From: an uncultured Clostridia bacterium
GTDB lineage: Bacteria; Bacillota; Clostridia; TANB77; CAG-508
Length of the DNA: 34,114 bases
Direction: 5' to 3'
Assembly (NCBI GenBank): GCA_963558405.1
Contig: CAUWGC010000018.1
Span: 1 to 34,114 of the forward strand
Below the pieces are notes generated by a model that was not told the origin of the DNA, made no database searches, and saw only the letters and a program-made list of their open reading frames with translations. A program made the position numbers and the translations under genes. Shown one piece after another: positions 1,043 through 33,530 of the stretch. Positions within the stretch are counted from its first letter, which is position 1. Each line of letters starts with the position of its first letter.

Positions 1043-2797
1043 ATGAAAAATAAAATTATTTTTGCAATGAAAGAATCAAAAATACTACACTATACAATTA
1101 TTTTTTTAATTAGTTTAATACTTTTTTACCCATTATTACATATGAATTTAGCAACATCTCATGATGGCTTTTTACATATTGCTAGAATTATAGGAGTAGA
1201 TAAAATTATAAATGAAGATTTTTATTTTCCACCAATGATATCATCACTTTTTTGTGAAGGATTTGGATACGCTATAAATTTATTTTATCCACCAATTGTA
1301 ACTTTTGTACCATTATTATTTAAGTTTTTGACCAATACATATTCATCAGCTTTAAAAGTTTTTACATTAATTACAATATTCTTGTCTGGTGCATTTATGT
1401 ATCAGTTTACATGTAAAATAACAAAAAATAAAATGATGGGATTAATATCAGCTGTTTTATATATAACTGCACCATATCACATAACTGATATATATATTCG
1501 TTTTGCTATTGGCGAATTTACAGCTTTTGTGTTTATTCCTATTGTCTTTTTAGGATTATATGACTTGTTTGAAGAACAAGGTAAGAAACATTATTATATT
1601 GCAATAGGAGTTATTGGACTAGTTTTAACGCATAGTATTACTCTTGTATATACAGCAGTTTTCTCGTTTATATATATATTATTTTATGCATATAAATTAA
1701 AAGAAAAGAATGTAATATTGAAATGTTTTGCAAATGCTATAATAATCCTACTTGCTACAGCTTTTTTTACTGTTCCAATATTAGAAAATAAAATGGCATG
1801 TGATTATATAATTTTTAATCCAAAATATATGTCAACTACTATAGAAATTGTTTATTCAAATACTATAAATCCTATACAATTTTTTGTAAATGATGAAGAT
1901 TCAGAATTAATATTTAAAATAGGAATACCAAGTATAGTTTCTATACTTTTTACAATACTAACATATAAGAATATAGATGAAAAGTATAAAAAAATTTATA
2001 CAATATTTTTATTTTTTGGAATATTAAGTTTAATAATGTGTACAAAATATTTTCCTTGGCTAATATTACCAAATATATTTGGTAATATACAATTTGCATG
2101 GAGAATGCTAGGATTTGCAACATTCTTTTTAAGTTTGGTAGGTGCAATAAATATTTACATTATAATAGACAAAATATTTAAAAATGATAATGTGACAAAA
2201 GTAAATTATTCATATATTGTACTACTAATTATGTTATTATATATTTATCCAATGGCAAGAACATATATATATACAGATTCAATACCAGATATGAAAATAG
2301 AAAATAAGGTTATTAATAACGAAACTACACACGTTTTTAATATAAATAGAGAATATCTACCTTCAAAATCTTTTATAAATAATTCTGACTACATTACAAA
2401 TAGACCAAAAGACACATCAATAATATTAAAGGGCAACCTAAATATAATAGAAGAAAATAAAAATAAGTTAAATTACAATTTAAAATTTGAAAAGAAAAAC
2501 AAAAGTGTTTCATTAGAACTTCCATATCTTTTTTATGTGGGATATAAAGTAGAGTATAAAACAGATGATGGAAATATATCTAATTTACCATATACAGAAT
2601 CGGAACATGGTTTTATACAAATAGAATTACCAGAAGATATTACTGAAGGTAGTATATATGTAACTTTTACAGGAACAACTCTTACTAAAATAGCTTATTT
2701 AGTGTCAGCTATTACATTGCTTAGTTTTACTATATGGATAATATATTTTAAATTTTATAAAGTAAGGAAAAAATATGAAAAAGACGGAAATAATTAA
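1043..2797 (+). CDS. Polytopic membrane protein, PTPS-related / YfhO-like GT-C glycosyltransferase family
   Basis: Many TM helices. Motifs DGxxH..R, GFGY..N.FY.P, APYH.TD.Y.R, QF.WRML, LELPYLFY.GY. Confidence 0.75.
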   Translation: MKNKIIFAMKESKILHYTIIFLISLILFYPLLHMNLATSHDGFLHIARIIGVDKIINEDFYFPPMISSLFCEGFGYAINLFYPPIVTFVPLLFKFLTNTYSSALKVFTLITIFLSGAFMYQFTCKITKNKMMGLISAVLYITAPYHITDIYIRFAIGEFTAFVFIPIVFLGLYDLFEEQGKKHYYIAIGVIGLVLTHSITLVYTAVFSFIYILFYAYKLKEKNVILKCFANAIIILLATAFFTVPILENKMACDYIIFNPKYMSTTIEIVYSNTINPIQFFVNDEDSELIFKIGIPSIVSILFTILTYKNIDEKYKKIYTIFLFFGILSLIMCTKYFPWLILPNIFGNIQFAWRMLGFATFFLSLVGAINIYIIIDKIFKNDNVTKVNYSYIVLLIMLLYIYPMARTYIYTDSIPDMKIENKVINNETTHVFNINREYLPSKSFINNSDYITNRPKDTSIILKGNLNIIEENKNKLNYNLKFEKKNKSVSLELPYLFYVGYKVEYKTDDGNISNLPYTESEHGFIQIELPEDITEGSIYVTFTGTTLTKIAYLVSAITLLSFTIWIIYFKFYKVRKKYEKDGNN

Positions 2798-9914: not shown

Positions 9915-9946
9915 TTTATCGTTAAAAATTATGTATAATAAAACAT

Positions 9947-10289
<343 letters not shown>

Positions 10290-10293
10290 AAAA

Positions 10294-10330
10294 TAAAAAA
10301 AGATTTATTAATCCTAATAAATCTTTTTTA
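10294..10330. terminator. Bidirectional terminator between rnpB and the rluA-family gene
   Basis: AAAAAGATTTATTA / TAATAAATCTTTTT inverted repeat. Confidence 0.7.
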
Positions 10331-11994: not shown

Positions 11995-12080
11995 TGGTGC
12001 AAGTAATGGGACTTGAACCCATACGCATAAAATGCACACGCCCCTCAAACGTGCCTGTCTGCCAATTCCAGCATACTTGC
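11995..12080 (-). tRNA. tRNA-Leu(GAG)
   Basis: GCAAGTA acceptor stem, anticodon arm CACGT-TTGAGGG-GCGTG, long variable arm, GGTTCAAGTCC T-arm, encoded CCA. Upstream promoter TTGTAA-17-TATAAT. Confidence 0.97.
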
Positions 12081-22488: not shown

Positions 22489-22673
22489 GAACAAACCTTA
22501 AATATCATTTAAGGTTTCTATTTTACAATACAGAAAAATTTTGTTTTTATATTATAAATTTTTGAGTTATCATTTATTTTATTCTTAAAAATTAACTTCT
22601 TTCAAATCCCGTAAAATTATTTATATAATTATAATAAAATATTTCAATTTTGTTATATGCAAGGAGGAAAAAT

Positions 22674-24035
22674 ATGGATATAGAAAAAATGACATTAGTA
22701 GAATTACGCCAACTAGCAAAAGAAAAAGGATTAAAAAATGTTACTAAATTAAAAAAAGATGAATTAATTGAAATTTTAATAGAAAAAGATAAAATTAACT
22801 ATGAACAACCAGCTGAAGAATCAGAAAATATATCAAAAAGTCCAAATGTTCTAGAAGAGGGACCAAAAGTATATGCACCTCAAGGCATATATAAAGTTAC
22901 TAATACAGAAGATCAAATTATTGAAGGGATTTTAGAGGTTTTACCTGATGGATATGGATTCTTAAGAGGAGATAATTATTTACCTAGCCCAAAAGATGTT
23001 TATATTTCACCAGTGCAAATAAGAAGATTTAAACTAGATACTGGAGATAAAATAAAGGGAATTTCAAGAAATCCAAAAGAAGGAGAAAAATTTCCAGCAT
23101 TAATTTTTGTAGGAGAAGTCAATGGAGAACAACCAGAAAAAGCTTTTAGAAGAAAAAAATTTGATGATCTTGTTCCTATTTATCCTACTGAAAGACTAAA
23201 ACTAGAAACTGAGAATCCAAATGAATATGCAATGAGAATAATTGACTTAATTTCACCTGTAGGAAAAGGACAAAGAGGAATGATTGTTGCTCCTCCTAAG
23301 GTTGGAAAAACCACACTTATAAAAAAGATAGCTAACAGTATTGCTATTAATAATCCAGAAGTAGAATTAATAGTATTACTTATAGATGAAAGACCAGAAG
23401 AAGTAACAGACATGAAACGTTCTATTAAAGGAGATGTAATTTATTCTACTTTTGATGAAGTACCAGATCATCATGTTAAAGTTGCAGAAATGGTATTAGA
23501 AAGAGCAAAAAGATTAACCGAACAAGGAAAAGATGTTGTTATTCTTTTAGATAGCATAACAAGACTTGCTAGAGCATACAATTTGGTTATTCCATCTTCT
23601 GGAAAAACACTTTCTGGTGGTTTAGATCCAAGTGCATTACATAAACCTAAAAAATTCTTTGGAGCTGCTAGAAACATAGAAAATGGGGGAAGCCTTACAA
23701 TTTTAGCATCTGCTCTAATTGAAACCGGAAGTAGAATGGATGATGTCATATTTGAAGAATTCAAAGGAACAGGTAATATGGAAGTTCATTTAGACAGAAA
23801 ACTATCTGAAAAACGAATTTTTCCTGCTATTGATATAAATAAATCTGGAACAAGAAGAGAAGATTTATTATTAAGTCAGAAAGAATTAGAAACTGTATTT
23901 GCATTAAGAAAAGCAATGAATAGTATGCAAGTTTCAGAAATAACTGAACAATTAATAAACCAAATGATAGAAACAAAAAACAATGAAGAATTTATTGATA
24001 AAATGGAAGAACTTTTAAAGAACTATAAAGATTAA
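22674..24035 (+). CDS. rho: Transcription termination factor Rho
   Basis: [44 protein letters not shown]22674 fits RBS AGGAGG. Confidence 0.97.
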
Positions 24036-24062
24036 GGATTCTTTCTTAATCTTTATAGTTTT
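24021..24062 (+). terminator. Intrinsic terminator after rho
   Basis: AACTATAAAGATTAAG / CTTAATCTTTATAGTT inverted repeat plus T-run. Confidence 0.75.
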
Positions 24063-24075
24063 ATACTAAAGACAT

Positions 24076-24154
24076 AAAAAAGAACCTGCCACTTTAACTA
24101 ATAGTCATAAGACTCCTAGTATAACGTCCAAGACGGTAGGTGGCTTAGGTTCAT
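24076..24154 (-). ncRNA. Putative small structured RNA 1 (three-way junction)
   Basis: Own promoter TTGACA(24187-24182)-17-TGnTATAAT. Closing stem GAACCU-AA-GCCAC / GUGGC-AGGUUC followed by a U-run. Confidence 0.7.
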
Positions 24155-24191
24155 AGAAATTATATCACATTAAATAAATAATGTCAAAAGT

Positions 24192-24287
24192 ATATGTGTG
24201 GAAGAAACCCGCCAGGGTAGCTAATGATCAACAGATCCCTAACTCAACGTCCCAAACGAGACCCAGCTCAGATTTTTCCACACATAA
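24192..24287 (-). ncRNA. Putative small structured RNA 2, same fold as RNA 1
   Basis: Own promoter TTGACT(24320-24315)-17-TGnTATACT. Closing stem UAUGUGUGGAA / UUCCACACAUA. Shares CGUY-UNG-GACG hairpin with RNA 1. Confidence 0.7.
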
Positions 24288-24408
24288 TAAGAGTATAACA
24301 CAAGAAAGAAATAAAGTCAAAAGTGACAATTTTATAAAATAAGTAAAAAGATAGAATTGTCAAAGCGAGGTTTTTTTATAAAATTAAATTCACTTTAACA
24401 TATCAAAA

Positions 24409-25475
24409 GATAGCAGAAGAGAGGTAGGTATAGGTATGTAAAAGTGCAAAAAAAGAAATAATAAACATTGCACAAAATCAAAGTTTTGCGCAATAAGATA
24501 TAGGAGTAAAATATATAGGCATACCATTTAATGCCTTACAACCACTTTACCTACAACCCTCTTATAGCTTGCTATCAAATATCGTTTGACTAATGTTATT
24601 ACTTTATATATTTAATATTGTAATAATGTTAGTCTTGTTCCAGATTTTTTATCTTATTTCAATTCATAATTGAATCTTAACTGATTTTATAATTTATCCT
24701 TTATAATTTTATATTCAAATTATTTCTTATATTAAAATTTTACAAAAATCTCTAAAATCTTCAAATCACTATATTTGCCGTATTTTTGCAACAACAAACT
24801 ATATGTCTTTAAAATAAAAACGCCTTAAAATCGATTCTCGTGCGTCGTTTTTTTAGGTATTTTTTCAGTTTTTTATATATTTATATAAGTATAAAAAATT
24901 TGGTTATTTTTTATCTAAAATCTCTCAAACCCAGAATTATCAATATTTTGCTAAAATACTAAACAACAAGTTATATGGCTTAAGTATAAAAATGGCTTAA
25001 AATCGATTCTCGTAAGCCATTATTTTAAATCTTTTAGAGATTACTTTAGCATCTGCAGATAATTATAAAAATTGCATATATATAACTGAAATTTTCATAA
25101 ACAACTCAAATAAATCTAAATTTAATGTTTAGATGAATAATTTGTAAATGGCTTAAATTTGATTTTTGCAAGTTTAAATTATAATAATTAAAATACAATA
25201 TAAATTAAAAACCAAACATTGAAATTTGCAATTAACAAATGTTCGCTTTAAAAATTATATAAATTTAAAATTTTTAATTTACAATTTTTAAAATTTGAAA
25301 ATTTCAAATGCAATATTTTTTAATTTTATTTTTCAATTTAAAAAACTTTTAATTATAAATATTAAATAAATTTTATTTTGTAAAACTTTGCACAAAATTT
25401 TTCTAAGTCTTTTTTATTATATTAAATATAAATCTATAACATTAAAAAATGGCTATCCTTCCCTACTCTACTCAA
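24409..25475. repeat. Structured non-coding element, copy 1
   Basis: Core ATTGCACAAAA-TCAAAG-TTTTGCGCAAT at 24467-24494. Internal CTTAAAATCGATTCTCG units. Inverted arm TTTGCACAAAA near 25387. Homologous to elements starting at 27220 and 32650. Confidence 0.8.
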
Positions 25476-25529
25476 TTTTATTCAAATTAATAAAAAAAGC
25501 CAAATTAGTTATAAATCGGCTTTTCCATT

Positions 25530-25761
25530 TCAATTACTCAATTAATTCACATTTAATTTCTGCTAGCATATCAGGATTTTATCTCAAAAAATATTGTTTA
25601 ATCTCCAAAGAATCTTCTTTGGGCATTGTAGAAGTCTCAAGTAACTTATGTATAAATAATTTTGTATACGGAACTTTATAATCAAGTTTCAATTTTATTA
25701 CTTCTAAAAAAACTTTATAAAATTCTTGAAATGATGAATTTTCACTCATATTTAATTGCAT
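25530..25761 (-). pseudogene. Fragments of unidentified genes ending at a minus-strand terminator (25495-25523)
   Basis: Short open frames (SENSSFQEFYKVFLEV…; NPDMLAEIKCELIE*) with no RBS or start of their own. Confidence 0.4.
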
Positions 25762-25920
25762 CTATGCTTTTTTCTTATTCCTTAACCTTTCCACCAGGTA
25801 ACATATAGAAATCCATGTCATCTCCATAAAATAAAAGAATTTTTGTTTCATCTTCATTATATATAATTGCATACACTCTATATGCAAAATTAAAATTTTC
25901 ATTTTTTTATTTTATATCAC
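25750..25920 (-). pseudogene. NUDIX hydrolase N-terminal fragment
   Basis: DIK*KNENFNFAYRVYAIIYNEDETKILLFYGDDMDFYMLPGGKVKE*EKSIDAIK: start of a Nudix box with two stops, then truncated. Confidence 0.75.
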
Positions 25921-26191
25921 CAAATAAATCATATGTATAAAATACTTCTTTATAAGCAACACCTAATTTATAAACATCCTCTTCATAAGTTGATAATTTA
26001 CCACCCCATTTTTCATATATAGTTCTTGCTTTATGATTGTCTTTTAATACTCCAATCACATATCTAGTTGCGCCATTTTTTATTGCCCATTCTTCAAACA
26101 TTCTCTTAAAGCTACTACCTATTCCTTTTTCTTGAAAATCAGGATCTATATATAATCCAATTAAATCTGCATATTTTACATTATACTTCAT
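25907..26191 (-). pseudogene. GNAT acetyltransferase C-terminal fragment
   Basis: LYIDPDFQEKGIGS acetyl-CoA motif and N.KAR..YEKWG. N-terminal half missing. Confidence 0.75.
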
Positions 26192-26414
26192 TAACGTTAT
26201 CTATATATGATGCTATTTTACTTGTAATTAGCATTATTAAATAGGCAATTACAACTGCAACAGTAAGTTTTATTATTTTATCTAGTGTTAAAGGGCTAGT
26301 ACCAAAATATGATAACGCAAAAGCTTCACCATAATCTGCTATAGAATATATTGTGTTAAAAACAATAGACCATAACAATAATTTTTTAGATATTACTTTT
26401 AACAATTCTTTCAT
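26181..26414 (-). pseudogene. N-terminal fragment of a membrane protein, probably an ABC-transporter TM domain
   Basis: RBS GAGGCGG and two TM helices, then an abrupt end at the GNAT fragment. Confidence 0.5.
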
Positions 26415-26435
26415 TATCTACCGCCTCGTTTTCTT

Positions 26436-26924
26436 TCATTTCTTATATTCATTCTTAATATCATTTATAAATTCAGGTAAATTAGTAAATGTAGCTATAA
26501 CTCCTCTATTTGTAAGTGCAAAAATATCTCTAGTTTTTTTATTTATTTCTTCTTTTACTGCTTTAGGAACTTTAATTGATATTCCTGCTTTTTTATATTC
26601 TTGTTCTATGTATTTTTCTAACGTAGGAAACATATTTTGAATTAAAAAAACGGCTTTTTTTCCAGCTAAATTTCTTGCAAACACAAAGTTATTTGGCTCT
26701 ATTCCTTTTTTAGATTTGATATCATTATATAATTTTAAATATTTATCATATTTAGAAGACATAGGCACGAACCACAATATATTTTTATCAATTTTATCTC
26801 TAAAACAAAAATAAGTTGGCCTTTTTGTACCAGTTTCTTTATTTTACATTAAATGATATTTTGGATTATACTTTTCAATAAATTTATCTTTTATAAAATA
26901 TAATTTTCCTTCTATAATTTCCAT
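26436..26924 (-). pseudogene. Type III toxin-antitoxin toxin, CptN-like, with a nonsense codon at position 27
   Basis: RBS AAGGAG. MEIIEGKLYFIKDKF…LM*NKE…KRPTYFCFRD…WFVPMSSK…FLIQNMFP. TAA at 26846-26844. Upstream repeats and terminator are typical of type III TA loci. Confidence 0.8.
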
Positions 26925-26941
26925 CTTACTCCTTATATAAT

Positions 26942-26964
26942 AAAAAGGGAGTACAAAGACTCCC
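26942..26964 (-). terminator. Terminator between antitoxin repeats and toxin gene
   Basis: GGGAGT-CTTTGT-ACTCCC followed by TTTTT on the minus strand. Confidence 0.8.
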
Positions 26965-26969
26965 AAATT

Positions 26970-27060
26970 TATTCACCAGTGTATTTTCTCTTTGCCAACT
27001 GGGTGGCTGATTAATCGATTGTCTAGGGTATTTTACTCTTTGCCTCCTAGTAGGCAGTAT
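26970..27060 (-). ncRNA. Type III antitoxin RNA (CptI-like), two pseudoknot repeats with about 48 nt period
   Basis: UGCCU-ACUAGG-AGGCA…CCUAG and GCCA-CCCAGU-UGGC…ACUGG, shared linker AAAGAG(U)AAAAUAC. Extended -10 TGcTATAAT at 27083-27075. Confidence 0.8.
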
Positions 27061-27219
27061 TTATTTATATAATAATTATAGCATCTTATATTATTTGAAT
27101 TGTCAACTAGTACAAAATAATTTTCTAAAATTATTATATATAATATTATATGCTATTTTTTAATGTATAATACAAATAATTTTATGATATCAAATGATTA
27201 TATAAAAAACTGTCGCGGC

Positions 27220-27692
27220 ATCAAAGTTTTGTGCAAAAAGGAATAGGAGTAAAATAATAGAACCCTTATCAAGGTCCTACCCACAAGTTCTTGTAACTAC
27301 TAGCCTTAACGGCTTTACTAGCTATTTATTAGCTATCGTTTGACTAACATTATTACTTTATAATTTATTACTTGTAATAATGTTAGTCTAGTCCCAGATA
27401 TTTATTTCTAAAATCAATTTTAAATCAGTTTTATAATTTATCCTTATAATTTTACATCTAAATAATTTTTCTATTTAAAATTTAATTTTATTACTTAATA
27501 ATTTTTATTTCATATTATATTTTATATAAATTTTCCAAAAATCTTCAAAATGCCTATTTCTCTATATTTGCCGTATTTTACAGAAAACAAACTATATGTC
27601 TAATTTATAAAAAACGCTTAGAACCGATTCTCACAAGCCGTCATTTTAAAGGTTTTTGAGGTTTTGTCTTTGGTTTAGACAAAATTTGCAAA
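27220..27692. repeat. Structured non-coding element, copy 2 (truncated)
   Basis: 37 nt identical to copy 3 (ATCAAAGTTTTGTGCAAAAAGGAATAGGAGTAAAATA). 27332-27660 is collinear with 24578-24870. Confidence 0.8.
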
Positions 27693-27737
27693 AAGAAATT
27701 ACGACACAAACCAATGATGGTCTGTGTCATAAAGTTT

Positions 27738-27992
27738 TTATCTTATTCTATCTTTGTATACCAATACCTTCTTAATCTCATCTTCTGTAATTGCTCTATT
27801 ATCAATAGTTATACCTTTATCAGAATAGGCTATTGTTTTAAATGCAATTACTATTTCATAAGTACTTTCTATTGTTTGTCCATCTCTTAAAGTATAAAAG
27901 TATATATACTTATGATTTTTATAATAACTATAGTTCTTATAATTTACTAAACTAGAAAACATTGAATTATCATTCATGTGATGTACCATCAC
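27738..27992 (-). CDS. Hypothetical protein or decayed gene
   Basis: Open frame of 84 codons with a hairpin downstream (27702-27730). Start region looks disrupted. Confidence 0.35.
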   Translation of the reverse strand: MMVHHMNDNSMFSSLVNYKNYSYYKNHKYIYFYTLRDGQTIESTYEIVIAFKTIAYSDKGITIDNRAITEDEIKKVLVYKDRIR

Positions 27993-28646: not shown

Positions 28647-29705
28647 CTAACCATTATTTCTAAATATAAATCTATATGTTATCTCATTACTCATAACGCT
28701 AAACCAAGCTTCTGTGCTTTCTTTTGATTCCCAATATAAAATTGGTTTAAATAGTTCCTCAGATACTTTTATAATCTCTCCAAAGTCTTTAACATCAACA
28801 ATATTTTCTTGTTTAATGTCTACTTTATCTTTAATTTTTACTATCTTATCTTGGCACAATCTTAACATTCTATTTAATTCTTTTCTATAATTATTCTTTA
28901 TTTTATTTATTGCAACCGTATTTCTAGTAATATATTTCAATCCAATTACTAAAATTATAATTAGTATTGTATCTAAACTAATTGCTACAATATTGATATT
29001 TTCATTTTCTTCTTTTGTTTTTGTTACATATGATGTCTCATCTTTATTATTTTCGCCTTTTATCTGTGTCGTTTTTTCGCCTAAGTCAATTGAAACTGCT
29101 GATGTATATTGATTTACTACAGGCTCATCATCAATTTCTGTTTTGACATCAACCTGCAATATTATCATATACGTAGTTTTTAATGTCATGTTCATTTCTT
29201 GTTCAAAATCTGTTACTAATTTGTTTTTATCTTTTAAATTTAGTTCTATTGGCTCTTGAATTGAAATTTTATCTGACATTTGTTTTTGTGTTTCACTATC
29301 AAATAAAACTTCCTCTTTATCCCAAACCTTCTGTTCCTCTCCATCTTTTGTATATACGGCCTGAAGCTTTCCTAATATTTTATAATCATATTCCAAATCA
29401 GAAGCTTTGTTTCCTATATAATCATAATTAATATTCAAATGTATATTATCAATTAAGTCTGTAACATATACTTCATTCATCTGTAACGTTTTTTGATCTA
29501 TATATTTATTATTAATTAAATTAACATCATAATTATAATTAAATTCATTAGTATATGAATAAATTTCCTCTTTTTTTTTAATAGTATTATTTTTTAATAA
29601 GTTTTGAATAAGACTACTAGACAAAACTATAATTAATGACATAATACATATTATATAAAAATATCTAGTAGATTTACGTATTTTAACTTTTTGTCTAGTC
29701 CTCAT
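28647..29705 (-). CDS. Two-TM membrane protein, DUF5305-like, in the SipW operon
   Basis: N-terminal TM, large external domain, second TM, C-terminal V.DF.E..KVS.EL.KPIL motif. Confidence 0.65.
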   Translation of the reverse strand: MRTRQKVKIRKSTRYFYIICIMSLIIVLSSSLIQNLLKNNTIKKKEEIYSYTNEFNYNYDVNLINNKYIDQKTLQMNEVYVTDLIDNIHLNINYDYIGNKASDLEYDYKILGKLQAVYTKDGEEQKVWDKEEVLFDSETQKQMSDKISIQEPIELNLKDKNKLVTDFEQEMNMTLKTTYMIILQVDVKTEIDDEPVVNQYTSAVSIDLGEKTTQIKGENNKDETSYVTKTKEENENINIVAISLDTILIIILVIGLKYITRNTVAINKIKNNYRKELNRMLRLCQDKIVKIKDKVDIKQENIVDVKDFGEIIKVSEELFKPILYWESKESTEAWFSVMSNEITYRFIFRNNG

Positions 29706-29728
29706 ATTCCCCCTCCTTTAACTATATA

Positions 29729-30907
29729 CTATTTTCCTGTATCAACTTCTACCTGCTCGTTTGATTGTATTATATTTAGCCAAATAGCTGGATATCCTAA
29801 ATATTTTACCTTAAAAATAACTTTTCCTAGCACTTGTTCTTCTTTAACACTCTCTTTGTCTTCTGAAGGATTATTATCTCCTTTTGTTGTAAAATAATAT
29901 TCTCCATTTTTTTGCTTTTTCTCAATTACTCTATGTATAACTGTATATCCTTTCATTTGGTATTGTATAATGTCTCCATTGTCAATATCATTTGCATTAC
30001 ACTTTTTTACTATTACAACATCCCCTACATATAATTCTTTTTCCATACTCCCTGAAGCTATTGCTATTGGCTTTATAGGAAATACTCCTATTGTAAACCA
30101 TATTACCAATATTACTAAAACAACTAGCGGAATCGAATTTTTCGGATTTACATTTTCAATTTCCTGTCTTGATTTTATTTCACTATTTTTGCTATTAGCA
30201 TATCTGATATAGAAAAATAGTATTGTTGGAATCGTTGTTTCAATTATTGCAACCATAATCCATGGTGCATTTGGTAATATCGGAGATAGCCATAAATATA
30301 ATTTTGTAAATAATTCATATATACTTGCTGGCTTCCAATCAGATTTCATTGATATATATGAATATAAAACATTTTTAGCAATCAATGGTATAAGATTTTG
30401 ACATATATCTTTTAATGCAAATAATAAAGTTATTTTTGTATTTACATATTTGTTTAATCCTATTTCAATAATTATATATATTAATGATACTAATATAGCT
30501 ATTTCTTTTTTATCATTTTCATAAACATTGTTGATTAATCTATATCTTATATATTCTTTAGAAATTATTACAGTCCCAAACATCCATAAATTTATTAAAA
30601 AGCCTTTAACTGTTGTAAAATATGGATTGTTTCCAAAAGTAATAAATAGTCCTGATATCATATATGTTAATATATATATAATAACTGCTATTAAGATATA
30701 TTGAATAACTTCTTTCTTAATTCTTGATTTTTGATAAGATTTTCCAATAGCAATTTTTAAAAATACAGCTAATGTAATCCAAAATAAAGGATTGATAATA
30801 TATAAATATATAGCATTTATATTAAACACAAGTTTTAAATTTGCTAATAATCCATATATAAGCATCAAAATAATTATTGCTATTGTTATATTTTTTGATT
30901 TTTGCAT
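29729..30907 (-). CDS. Signal peptidase I, SipW/ER type, fused to an N-terminal polytopic membrane domain
   Basis: SGSME…GD, VIHRV (Ser-His dyad), TKGDNN…D motifs in the last ~130 aa. Confidence 0.88.
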   Translation of the reverse strand: MQKSKNITIAIIILMLIYGLLANLKLVFNINAIYLYIINPLFWITLAVFLKIAIGKSYQKSRIKKEVIQYILIAVIIYILTYMISGLFITFGNNPYFTTVKGFLINLWMFGTVIISKEYIRYRLINNVYENDKKEIAILVSLIYIIIEIGLNKYVNTKITLLFALKDICQNLIPLIAKNVLYSYISMKSDWKPASIYELFTKLYLWLSPILPNAPWIMVAIIETTIPTILFFYIRYANSKNSEIKSRQEIENVNPKNSIPLVVLVILVIWFTIGVFPIKPIAIASGSMEKELYVGDVVIVKKCNANDIDNGDIIQYQMKGYTVIHRVIEKKQKNGEYYFTTKGDNNPSEDKESVKEEQVLGKVIFKVKYLGYPAIWLNIIQSNEQVEVDTGK

Positions 30908-30969
30908 ATTTTTCCTCTAAAAAGTCTGATTAAAGGATAATATGAAATATTATCCTTTATTCACTTTAT

Positions 30970-31524
30970 TTATTTTGTATGTACTCCGTGAGTTGGTGTT
31001 ACAGTAACTTCATTTGTTGCTTGTTCATATGTAAAGTTTATTTTGAACTTAGCTGTTGTTGTTGTTGTTGTTGAGTCTTTTTTCCATTTAATTCCAAATG
31101 TCACTGGGCATGTTCCTCCTGCTGCTATAACTTCTAAACCATCTGTTGCAATAGTTGGTGTTGTAATTTCAATTTCAGAATTTGAAAATTCTTTTCCTTG
31201 ATCATCAGTTAATGTGAATCCTGTTAATTTAGCAGGTACAGTACCAGCGTTTTTAATATTTGCAGTTACTGTACAACCATCCCCTGGGTAACCTAATGTT
31301 ACATCAACTGATAATGTATCATTTTTGTTACCTGTAACATTAGCAGTACCATGTGATGATGTATCAACACTTGCTGATAAGAATTTAACATCCCATGTTC
31401 CTGATGCAGTTGCTGTTCCAGAAATTGTTATGTTTGCAGAAAATGCTGCATATCCAACAGCTATTGCTAATAATATTACTATTAAAGCTACCAACAAAAA
31501 GTTTCTTTTTTGCTTTTTCATCAA
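30970..31524 (-). CDS. TasA/CalY-like secreted protein with SipW-type signal peptide
   Basis: LLAIAVGYAAFS signal, PGD….I.N.GT.PA motif, Thr/Gly-rich. First gene of the sipW operon. Confidence 0.72.
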   Translation of the reverse strand: MMKKQKRNFLLVALIVILLAIAVGYAAFSANITISGTATASGTWDVKFLSASVDTSSHGTANVTGNKNDTLSVDVTLGYPGDGCTVTANIKNAGTVPAKLTGFTLTDDQGKEFSNSEIEITTPTIATDGLEVIAAGGTCPVTFGIKWKKDSTTTTTTAKFKINFTYEQATNEVTVTPTHGVHTK

Positions 31525-32614: not shown

Positions 32615-32649
32615 AATATGAAAAGTGATATCATAGGGGGGTTACTATT

Positions 32650-33530
32650 ATCAAAGTTTTGTGCAAAAAGGAATAGGAGTAAAATATAAAACCATGCAAA
32701 ATGGTCCTCCCTCCAAAATCTCGCTATTCTTTTAGCGAAGCCTATTTCAGCCTATTATTACAACATTATAAAAAGCTCTTAAAATTGATTCTGGAGCTTC
32801 ATTTTTTTTATATTATTCCTGGTTTGATTTTTTTTCATTATTGTAACTACATTTAAAAAAAATTTTATATAACTTTAGATTATTTTATCAAAATTTCCTA
32901 AAACCTTAATTTTAAGTATTTTGCTTGATTTTTTAGACAACAAGTTATATTACCTTTTAATAAAAACGGCTTAAAATCGATTCTCGTGCGTCACTTTTTT
33001 AGCCATTTTTCAGCATTTTTAATAGATGCCTAAAAATCAGCATTTATACTTAATTTTATATATAAAGACTAGTTTTTTAAACTTACACATCTAATTTAAA
33101 ATATATAATAACTTGTTAGATAAAATATTAAAATGTCTTAAAATCGATTTTAATGCGTCTATAATATGAAATTATATTATTGATTAGTAATCTAAATTTA
33201 TATAATTATTATACACAATGATTTTATAAATTTATAATAAAAAATTTATTTAAAAACATTTTAGACAAATGTTCGTTTTAAAAAATTTATATTTAAAATT
33301 AACTTTGCACAAAATTTTAAAAATTTAATTGTTTAAAATCTAATTATAAAAAATTTTTGTAATTTTAAATTTAAAATTTTATTTTTTACTTTTAATATTT
33401 TTATTTTAATTCATTTTAAAATGATTAAAAAAATATCTTTAAATTTTATTTTCATTTTAAAAAGTTATTTTAAAATTTCTATTTTATTTAATTCGCTCTA
33501 AAATAGCCTATTCCCCTATTCCCTACTTAT
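32650..33530. repeat. Structured non-coding element, copy 3
   Basis: Same core start. Three CTTAAAAT(C/T)GATT units, ACAAATGTTCG, AACTTTGCACAAAATTTT (33301) and a GCCTATTCCCCTA block in the same order as copy 1. Confidence 0.8.

Follow-up and report, generated by a model that had tools for sequence, protein, structure and literature searches.

Why should a bacterium keep two small structured RNAs side by side, each with a promoter of its own and neither next to a partner gene? The question is raised by a stretch of 34,114 nucleotides (nt) from an uncultured Clostridia bacterium (assembly GCA_963558405.1, contig CAUWGC010000018.1), here called the window, in which a preliminary description made from the sequence alone had pointed out a tandem pair of RNAs, A and B. 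It was found that A and B, although diverged, belong to a single family of structured RNAs, which is apparently undescribed. The new family comes with a defined protein partner: elsewhere, its members lie antisense at the end of the coding sequence of PBECR3 (PF18812), which is predicted to be an RNase toxin domain of the BECR fold. I propose that A, B and their relatives are RNA antitoxins or immunity factors for PBECR3, and that the two RNAs of the window are orphans serving as stand-alone phage immunity. I put the probability of this reading at roughly 55%.

Two small RNAs downstream of rho

Both RNAs are encoded on the minus strand, between the rho gene (22650..24035, plus strand), with which they are convergent, and a long AT-rich non-coding stretch. 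RNA A occupies 24193..24286. Its three-way-junction core of 75 nt (24203-24277) is closed by an outer helix extension (GUGUGGAA / UUCCACAC) and followed by a short U run; the extension is seen in phage copies too. RNA B occupies 24076..24154, with its core at 24080-24154 and a U tract directly 3′ of P1. The common three-way junction had been described at this very place, and the minimum-free-energy folds of the two RNAs agree on it: both have a bulged P1, a P2, and a P3 with a G/A mismatch. RNA A (folded as 101 nt) reaches -37.4 kcal/mol with a z-score of -4.25 and RNA B (85 nt) -24.3 kcal/mol with a z-score of -3.33, and none of 200 shuffled sequences was as stable in either case.

Each RNA does have its own near-consensus extended promoter on the minus strand. 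That of A is TTGACT-17-TATACT (24320..24292; 10 of 12 matches) and that of B is the perfect consensus TTGACA-17-TATAAT (24187..24159; 12 of 12), both with a TG extension. The promoter of B starts 5 nt past the closing helix of RNA A. Promoter-like sites between 23800 and 24900 are no more numerous than expected by chance (10, compared with 7.2 ± 2.5 in shuffles), and among these sites only the promoters of A and B carry a TG extension.

The two cores form an ungapped alignment of 75 columns, 46 of which are identical (61.3%). Every one of the 24 base pairs is canonical in A and B alike (48 of 48 pair cells), with five double-sided and six one-sided changes, while slid controls are 27-48% paired. 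Diverged sequence with a kept structure, as had been noted, is thus an accurate account of the pair. In a shuffle control 17 of 500 alignments reach the observed values, so the two sequences alone are weak evidence, and the strong evidence comes from the homologues.

As had also been noted, no partner gene is adjacent. The only reading frame that overlaps the RNAs is an open reading frame (ORF) of 53 amino acids (aa) on the plus strand, opposite RNA A and its promoter (24181..24342; ..VWKKP..NSTSQT..). A long perfect hairpin (24020..24061) separates the rho stop codon from RNA B. It is probably a bidirectional terminator, which would also stop read-through from A and B; in an Rfam scan it was matched on both strands by unrelated hairpin models. 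A comparison with Rfam by cmscan, one of the checks proposed at the outset, gave no match to A or B. With Rfam 15, no family reached its gathering score at the two RNAs, and in the whole window RNase P alone reached the threshold; a scan of 23900-24700 at E up to 10 returned hairpin noise only, and 15 homologous loci gave no match at E up to 0.5. The abiF and DUF3800-associated motifs, which had been suggested as the families to compare, were not listed by cmscan, and no other Rfam family matched either.

Homologues of A and B

Is the pair unique to this genome? A covariance model (R1) was made from A and B alone, and a second one (R2) from 22 copies. In the 1.58-Mb genome of the window, R1 finds only A (92.5 bits) and B (98.6 bits). 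R2 gives them 73.7 and 84.8 bits, scores that are high partly by construction because the R2 alignment (A7) contains both. A degenerate DNA pattern, drawn from the columns in which A and B agree, was run against public collections and gave 18 loci in genomes and five in viral contigs. R1 confirms 15 of these 23 loci at the pattern site, four of them, in phage contigs and metagenome-assembled genomes (MAGs), with 77-84 bits. Confirmed copies have a near-consensus promoter at an unchanged upstream distance. In nine loci, the RNA is antisense within an ORF that is open across the entire 3-kb locus. The family ranges over low- and high-GC phages, Clostridia, Bacilli, spirochaetes, and phages of Bacteroidota and Proteobacteria. 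Two pattern loci, L005 and L008, were dropped as members, their pattern sites being inside unrelated coding sequence, and L006, L012, L013, L017, L018, and L020 were dropped as R1 does not confirm the pattern site; R2 gives 13.0-16.6 bits to the excluded loci L008, L013, and L017.

RNA A shares 74.7% identity with a phage copy, and RNA B shares 81.3% with a copy from a Clostridia MAG (L011), where it lies within a giant ORF that contains PBECR3. Since A and B are each closer to these outside copies than to each other, they are two old alleles rather than a recent local duplication. The GC content of the phage contigs, 29-31%, is near the 26.5% of the host.

The RNA is antisense to the end of PBECR3

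What stands beside the RNA in other genomes? Building a covariance model from both copies and searching genomes for neighbours, as had been proposed, led to homologues whose neighbour is PBECR3. The RNA is antisense and directly after the PBECR3 domain in three settings: giant proteins, proteins of 422-436 aa, and stand-alone proteins. It starts from its own sigma-70-type promoter just past the domain and ends at the last codons of PBECR3.

In the first setting, four nearly complete phage contigs (38-43 kb) have an ORF of 2886-3306 aa. According to Pfam the giant ORF encodes a polyvalent protein with LPD38, PBECR3, ART-PolyVal, LPD1, RadC, and DnaJ domains, and the E-values of PBECR3 in the polyvalent proteins are 1e-24 to 1e-42. 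In locus L032, PBECR3 covers aa 1436-1552 and the RNA aa 1553-1578; in locus L033, the positions are aa 1017-1127 and aa 1125-1150. The protein of locus L035 has two PBECR3 domains and there are two RNAs, one behind each. PBECR3 was confirmed together with the RNA in three polyvalent proteins, including that of L035. Within the polyvalent genes, the strand opposite the RNA gene and its promoter is translated into a Ser/Thr/Asn-rich linker. In the second setting, the RNA lies at the C-terminus of phage proteins of 422-436 aa that end in PBECR3. In the loci examined, there is no protein candidate between the PBECR3-ending genes and the next phage gene.

The association was found from both directions. 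Starting from the RNA, the ORFs beside it in L010, L016, and L019 proved to be PBECR3 (E 3e-14 to 1e-24), and the segments of giant ORFs proved to be PBECR3 in all five loci tested. Starting from the protein, 41 viral loci were collected by PBECR3 peptide patterns without consulting the RNA. Thirty distinct loci were scanned with R2, the other 11 being omitted (10 were identical over 230 nt and one was cut off). R2 has 24 matches in 23 of the 30 loci, one of which has a second copy; 16 loci score at least 22.9 bits. All of these matches are on the opposite strand and within about 100 nt of the domain end, and elsewhere in the same 80,304 bases there is no match with E up to 1.

Cultured phages were sampled by tblastn (10 records, three of them examined). 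Where the RNA would be expected, there are weak matches in Rhodobacter phage RC1 (E 0.005), in Rhizobium phage RHph_N28_2 (E 0.12), where the match is intergenic after a PBECR3 gene of 119 aa, and in Burkholderia phage phiE131 (E 0.54). A blastn search with two loci of C-terminal PBECR3 against GenBank phages gave no match, and a tblastn search against plasmids gave one record. A more elaborate arrangement is that of L011, the MAG locus with the copy 81.3% identical to RNA B, where two RNA types 11 nt apart follow one PBECR3 domain in the giant ORF (1392-1556, plus strand). There is a promoter only before the first, so the two are apparently co-transcribed. The second RNA type looks like extra immunity.

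PBECR3 is a domain of about 115 residues. When the AlphaFold model (predicted local distance difference test, pLDDT, 85) was compared with known folds, the RNase toxins BrnT and RelE came first, though weakly, and a sequence search of the PDB with the PBECR3 profile gave nothing relevant. The PBECR domains were described as predicted RNases of the barnase/EndoU/colicin/RelE fold, and proteins bearing them are thought to be packaged in the virion and injected (Iyer 2017, PMC5512222). The term "antisense" does not occur in that paper. A 2026 preprint on BECR domains places PBECR3 in a colicin-like group (colicin-like tRNases). No RNA partner of PBECR domains was found in the literature searched, most subscription journals being outside the search. 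Queries for BECR together with RNA antitoxins returned one unrelated review, and queries for polyvalent proteins with antitoxins and non-coding RNA, or for orphan antitoxin small RNAs in phages, returned nothing pertinent.

Structure, covariation and strand

The family forms a three-way junction. Its bulged P1 shows free covariation, and P2 is a short hairpin that hardly varies, CG(U/C)(U/C)UNGG(A/G)CGU, the exception being one switch from U-A to C-G in six of 42 copies. P3 has a conserved G-U pair and a G/A internal mismatch. P1 and P3 vary freely yet stay paired. In a sequence-only MAFFT alignment of 20 copies, on which the structure of A and B was imposed, 78.2% of the pair cells are paired (67.0% in shuffles, 30-50% in slid controls) and the covariation is 0.439, compared with 0.239 in shuffles; none of 500 shuffles reaches the observed pairing or covariation. 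In model-based alignments, 94.1% of the cells are paired for 22 copies, with 19 of 24 pairs double-changed, and 92.4% for 42 copies (63.4% in shuffles), with 283 double-change cells and a covariation of 0.704 (0.211 in shuffles). For these two alignments, none of 500 shuffles matches the paired cells, the double-change cells, or the covariation, and slid controls are 29-42% paired. In the 42 sequences, 21 of the 24 pairs show double changes.

The strand is fixed by the excess of G-U over A-C cells, which is 61 to 7 in one count and 65 to 2 in the other, and the fold pairs 94% of the cells on the RNA strand and 83% on the other. Of 31 copies, 22 have a promoter with at least 10 of 13 matches no more than 60 nt upstream, compared with 2.9% of random windows of the same loci. 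In the loci of C-terminal PBECR3, the stop codon lies inside the 3′ strand of P1; P2 and P3 are thus non-coding yet conserved. In L010, the RNA is entirely intergenic. Since P2 and P3 are conserved where they are non-coding, protein-coding constraint cannot explain the conservation.

These observations bear on the suspicion that the similarity is simply a conserved linker peptide of polyvalent proteins and that the fold is coincidental. It is true that the region is translated on the other strand in polyvalent genes and that a peptide ..TS(K/E)T.. recurs there. However, such an artefact can hardly account for compensatory changes in most of the pairs, for a G-U excess that points to the non-coding strand, for promoters conserved on the RNA strand, or for a motif that is conserved past the stop codon and in intergenic DNA. 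I regard this explanation as very improbable.

Orphan copies

How do A and B relate to the linked copies? They do not lie antisense at the C-terminus of a PBECR3 domain. The genome of the window (G000), which is 100% complete by marker genes, has no match to PF18812 at E up to 1, and the orphan status of the pair therefore extends to the whole genome. Opposite A, the translated plus strand resembles the final residues of PBECR3 and an ensuing linker, in comparison with the linker translations of polyvalent genes. The 53-aa ORF there is not a PBECR3 domain; the approximately 350 nt that would encode PBECR3 are absent beside A, and the promoter of B occupies their place. In a genome of the same genus (G001), rho and the element beyond the RNAs are kept and a block of about 300 nt with both RNAs is missing. 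Thus, despite the PBECR3-like end opposite A, acquisition as toxin-less modules is as likely as local loss of the toxin.

Of 150 genomes sampled evenly from the class, six carry the RNA (G076, G121, G171, G173, G198, and G208). It adjoins PBECR3 in G121 and G198. No PF18812 match was found at E up to 0.01 in G076, G171, and G208 (G173 was left out). G076 has three copies of the RNA, two of which are in tandem like A and B (L084; 1346-1426 and 1501-1570, minus strand), and a tandem pair of orphans therefore recurs in a genome without PBECR3. Orphan copies keep strong promoters and score 32-46 bits, compared with 28-40 bits for linked copies. In two spirochaete MAGs (L003 and L009), about 18 codons of the PBECR3 end, read by eye, are left beside the RNA.

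Some neighbours of orphan copies may be recorded here. The orphan RNA of G208 (L078; 1501-1572, minus strand) is about 370 nt from an array of clustered regularly interspaced short palindromic repeats (1944-2575; 36-nt repeat, period 66, about 7.6 units). It adjoins a ParG-like gene, and there is a weaker second copy at 1749-1826 on the plus strand. In L003, the orphan RNA is convergent with a gene pair (1720-2372, minus strand), which, judged by eye from its motifs, may be of the YafQ/RelE-DinJ kind.

Are A and B then neutral relics, that is, two junctions between PBECR3 and linker left from a decayed polyvalent-protein gene of a prophage? The PBECR3-like end opposite A and the absence of the RNAs from the same-genus genome are in keeping with decay, as are gene fragments nearby, namely parts of a GNAT gene and of a sortase gene and a CptIN toxin with an interrupted frame. 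However, 29 of 75 positions differ between A and B while every pair cell is canonical and five pairs have changed on both sides, and near-consensus promoters have been kept while all of the PBECR3 coding sequence of about 350 nt is gone. Only the promoter of B separates the two units, and unrelated genomes, too, have orphans, singly or in tandem, whose promoters are intact. A DNA contig of a second sample, which covers 23904-24484, differs from the window only at or before 24041 and nowhere in the RNAs; coming from one strain, it is a weak argument. There is a small chance that the two RNAs are relics.

Proposed function

The preliminary description had suggested an RNA antitoxin or a protein-binding RNA. 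The suggestion has gained a partner elsewhere, but the antitoxin function itself is something I infer. With a predicted RNase toxin domain as the partner, "RNA antitoxin or protein-binding RNA" is the most economical interpretation. The antitoxin reading is adopted because a toxic RNase would need an antidote, no protein candidate is seen, and the RNA is the constant neighbour. The PBECR3 RNase would be toxic to the cell that produces it, and the antidote would be needed there; the RNA would neutralise the PBECR3 domain, and its position at the domain boundary would keep toxin and antidote together during domain shuffling. The constitutively promoted orphans A and B would shield the cell from the PBECR3 of phages or other mobile elements, in the manner of orphan immunity genes.

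How would neutralisation work? Direct binding of the nuclease domain, as in type III toxin-antitoxin systems, is favoured because the hairpin is conserved in copies from 34% to 68% GC, even where it is non-coding, because P3 keeps its G-U pair and internal-loop bases, and because orphans survive without a complementary target. The alternative is type I-like antisense silencing, in which the RNA pairs with the PBECR3 mRNA and causes its degradation or blocks its expression, for example to silence leaky expression in lysogens; the orphans of the window would then act in trans on mRNAs of closely related phages that enter the cell, or do nothing. The RNA is indeed always cis-antisense and convergent with the coding end of PBECR3, a 3′-overlapping arrangement known from Gram-positive type I systems. 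The P2 loop fits Y-U-N-R in most copies, and such loops are typical of antisense recognition. However, cis-antisense pairing needs no conserved sequence, yet P2 is nearly invariant, and the conserved features of P3 suggest a shape that is recognised. Moreover, strongly promoted orphans occur in four genomes without a target gene, and the toxin is an enzyme domain of about 115 aa, often in an ORF of 3000 aa, and no small membrane peptide. I consider an antisense regulator rather unlikely, although it is a serious competitor to direct binding.

Another role on PBECR3 would be one that does not neutralise it: the RNA may be a cofactor, a guide, or a substrate mimic, or may assist the folding or packaging of the effector. 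The tight physical linkage fits such a role equally well. The placement of PBECR3 with colicin-like tRNases in the 2026 preprint suits it too, and, speculatively, the conserved hairpin could mimic a substrate stem-loop. On the other hand, orphans without the enzyme suit an antidote and not a cofactor, and ARAGORN finds no tRNA-like gene at the locus of A and B. This role is thought improbable.

Several points weigh against the antitoxin reading. With R2, seven of the 23 PBECR3 loci that have a match reach no more than 13.6-18.2 bits, while the chance site L008 reaches 16.6 bits; the case for these seven is therefore made by position, strand, and the visible hairpin motif, not by score. Another seven of the 30 loci (L048, L069, and L072-L076) have no R2 match, several of them with a variant hairpin by eye. 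Alignments fitted to a model are biased toward its structure, and RNAalifold on the MAFFT alignment recovers P2 only, since J23 and P3 are out of register there by one base. In Foldseek, PBECR3 resembles RNase toxins only weakly (best E 3.9e-3, none at or below 0.001). R1 matches in none of the 60 nearest related genomes, and the RNA is therefore not a conserved host function. Among the four sequencing runs compared, the contigs of the RNA runs cover none of 24030-24443, although assembled contigs cannot show small RNAs and so tell nothing for or against expression. No published test of PBECR3 toxicity or of its neutralisation by RNA was found. As a side observation, short contigs of two runs guessed to be RNA span 24464-24700.

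A wider scheme of RNA immunity against virion-delivered RNases can be put forward tentatively, with the odds somewhat against it. In this scheme, the antidote is encoded antisense within the effector gene, toxin and antidote are shuffled as a unit, and bacteria capture toxin-less copies as shields. If it is true, A and B are the RNA counterpart of arrays of orphan immunity genes, and the promoter and the RNA double as a protein linker, so that each PBECR3 moves with its antidote as one unit. The linked arrangement is a clear gene within a gene, in which about 130 nt hold a promoter and a structured RNA on one strand and a linker on the other. As an antidote, the RNA would be the first candidate immunity factor for the PBECR-type RNase domains of phage polyvalent proteins and other PBECR3-bearing phage proteins, for which the literature searched gave no partner, and a widespread family with unusually clear covariation would join the short list of RNA antidotes to protein toxins, probably as a new variant of RNA-based toxin neutralisation. 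The orphans raise a testable idea, namely that captured antidote RNAs defend bacteria from injected phage effectors. The covariance model can serve as an annotation marker for PBECR3 boundaries and for toxin-less immunity loci.

Surroundings of the locus

A locus of the CptIN family of type III toxin-antitoxin systems lies 2.2 kb from A and B (26439-27105, minus strand). Its ORF (26439-26843) matches the NCBIfam model NF047359 with 113 bits (cut-off 90) over model positions 22-144 of 150, and an in-frame TAA severs roughly the first 26 codons (26853-26930) from it. Upstream are a consensus promoter, two hairpins each ending in GGCAAAGAG, and a terminator, which together are probably the cptI RNA. 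Neither Pfam nor PADLOC gives a match for the ORF; an earlier assignment as ToxN/AbiQ-like was dropped in favour of the CptIN-family toxin given by NCBIfam.

A non-coding element of about 400 nt, with two conserved blocks and hairpins between them, is present in three copies on the minus strand (24440-24900, 27195-27650, and 32630-33060). Each copy precedes different genes, the first RNAs A and B and the second the CptIN locus, and the end of the element adjoins rho in the same-genus genome G001. A scan of 24300-27750 with Rfam gave nothing for the element. At the contig end (33909-34112, minus strand), the C-terminal 68 residues of a tyrosine recombinase are encoded on the same strand as the elements and the RNAs; the match to Phage_integrase (E 5.6e-6) is just under the Pfam cut-off. 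Taken together, the elements and the recombinase resemble a cassette array.

At 25910-26191 and 27741-27992 on the minus strand are the C-terminal portion of a GNAT acetyltransferase and a fragment that matches class B sortase (33 bits, far below the cut-off), and the stretch from 24 to 28 kb looks like a graveyard of partial genes. Further on, an operon-like set of three genes (28650-31524, minus strand) encodes a DUF5305 protein (28650-29705), a protein that joins a signal-peptidase S26 domain to a long membrane N-terminus (29732-30907), and a secreted protein of 184 aa with a weak CARDB match. The class A RNase P RNA (9946-10294, plus strand; 290.8 bits) and a tRNA-Leu(GAG) gene (11995-12080, minus strand) are ordinary.

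Comparison with known systems

The RNA antitoxins ToxI, CptI, and TenpI of type III systems resemble the PBECR3 RNA in being structured RNAs beside an endoribonuclease toxin, with neutralisation of the protein presumed in the case of PBECR3, and in occurring in phages and mobile DNA, where tandem units are possible. Type III antitoxins are short direct repeats of about 34-40 nt, located upstream of and co-oriented with a toxin of the ToxN, CptN, or TenpN type. In contrast, the PBECR3 RNA is a three-way junction of about 75 nt, transcribed from its own promoter and encoded opposite the toxin at its 3′ boundary; its partner has the BECR fold, and it has no Rfam or sequence similarity to ToxI, CptI, or TenpI. 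Nor are A and B a repeat array of the type III kind, being about 75 nt long and only 61% identical, with one promoter each.

The small RNAs of Gram-positive type I systems are similar in being cis-encoded, convergent, and transcribed from their own promoter, with an overlap of the toxin 3′ end. RatA/txpA and SR4/bsrG are examples with such 3′-overlapping convergent genes. The cis-antisense overlap with a toxin mRNA is seen in the homologues, while the window has no toxin gene. The type I toxin is a small hydrophobic peptide, whereas PBECR3 is an enzyme domain, often inside a protein of 3000 aa; the PBECR3 RNA also differs in that its fold and hairpin are deeply conserved across phyla and in that it has orphans without a target.

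Phages are also known to mimic antitoxins. The pseudo-ToxI of a Pectobacterium phage reportedly counters an abortive-infection toxin of the host. The likeness is that of a phage-borne RNA able to neutralise an RNase toxin; the difference is that the PBECR3 toxin domain belongs to the phage itself.

A further parallel in organisation is that of the polymorphic toxins, for which arrays of orphan immunity genes are known. As with PBECR3 and its RNA, the antidote is beside a variable toxin domain, and toxin-less antidotes are kept, sometimes in tandem. In MuF polymorphic toxins of phages, protein immunity genes lie downstream of the toxin (Jamet 2017, PMC5576092). The antidote of PBECR3, by contrast, would be an RNA, encoded antisense inside the toxin gene rather than as a downstream protein gene.

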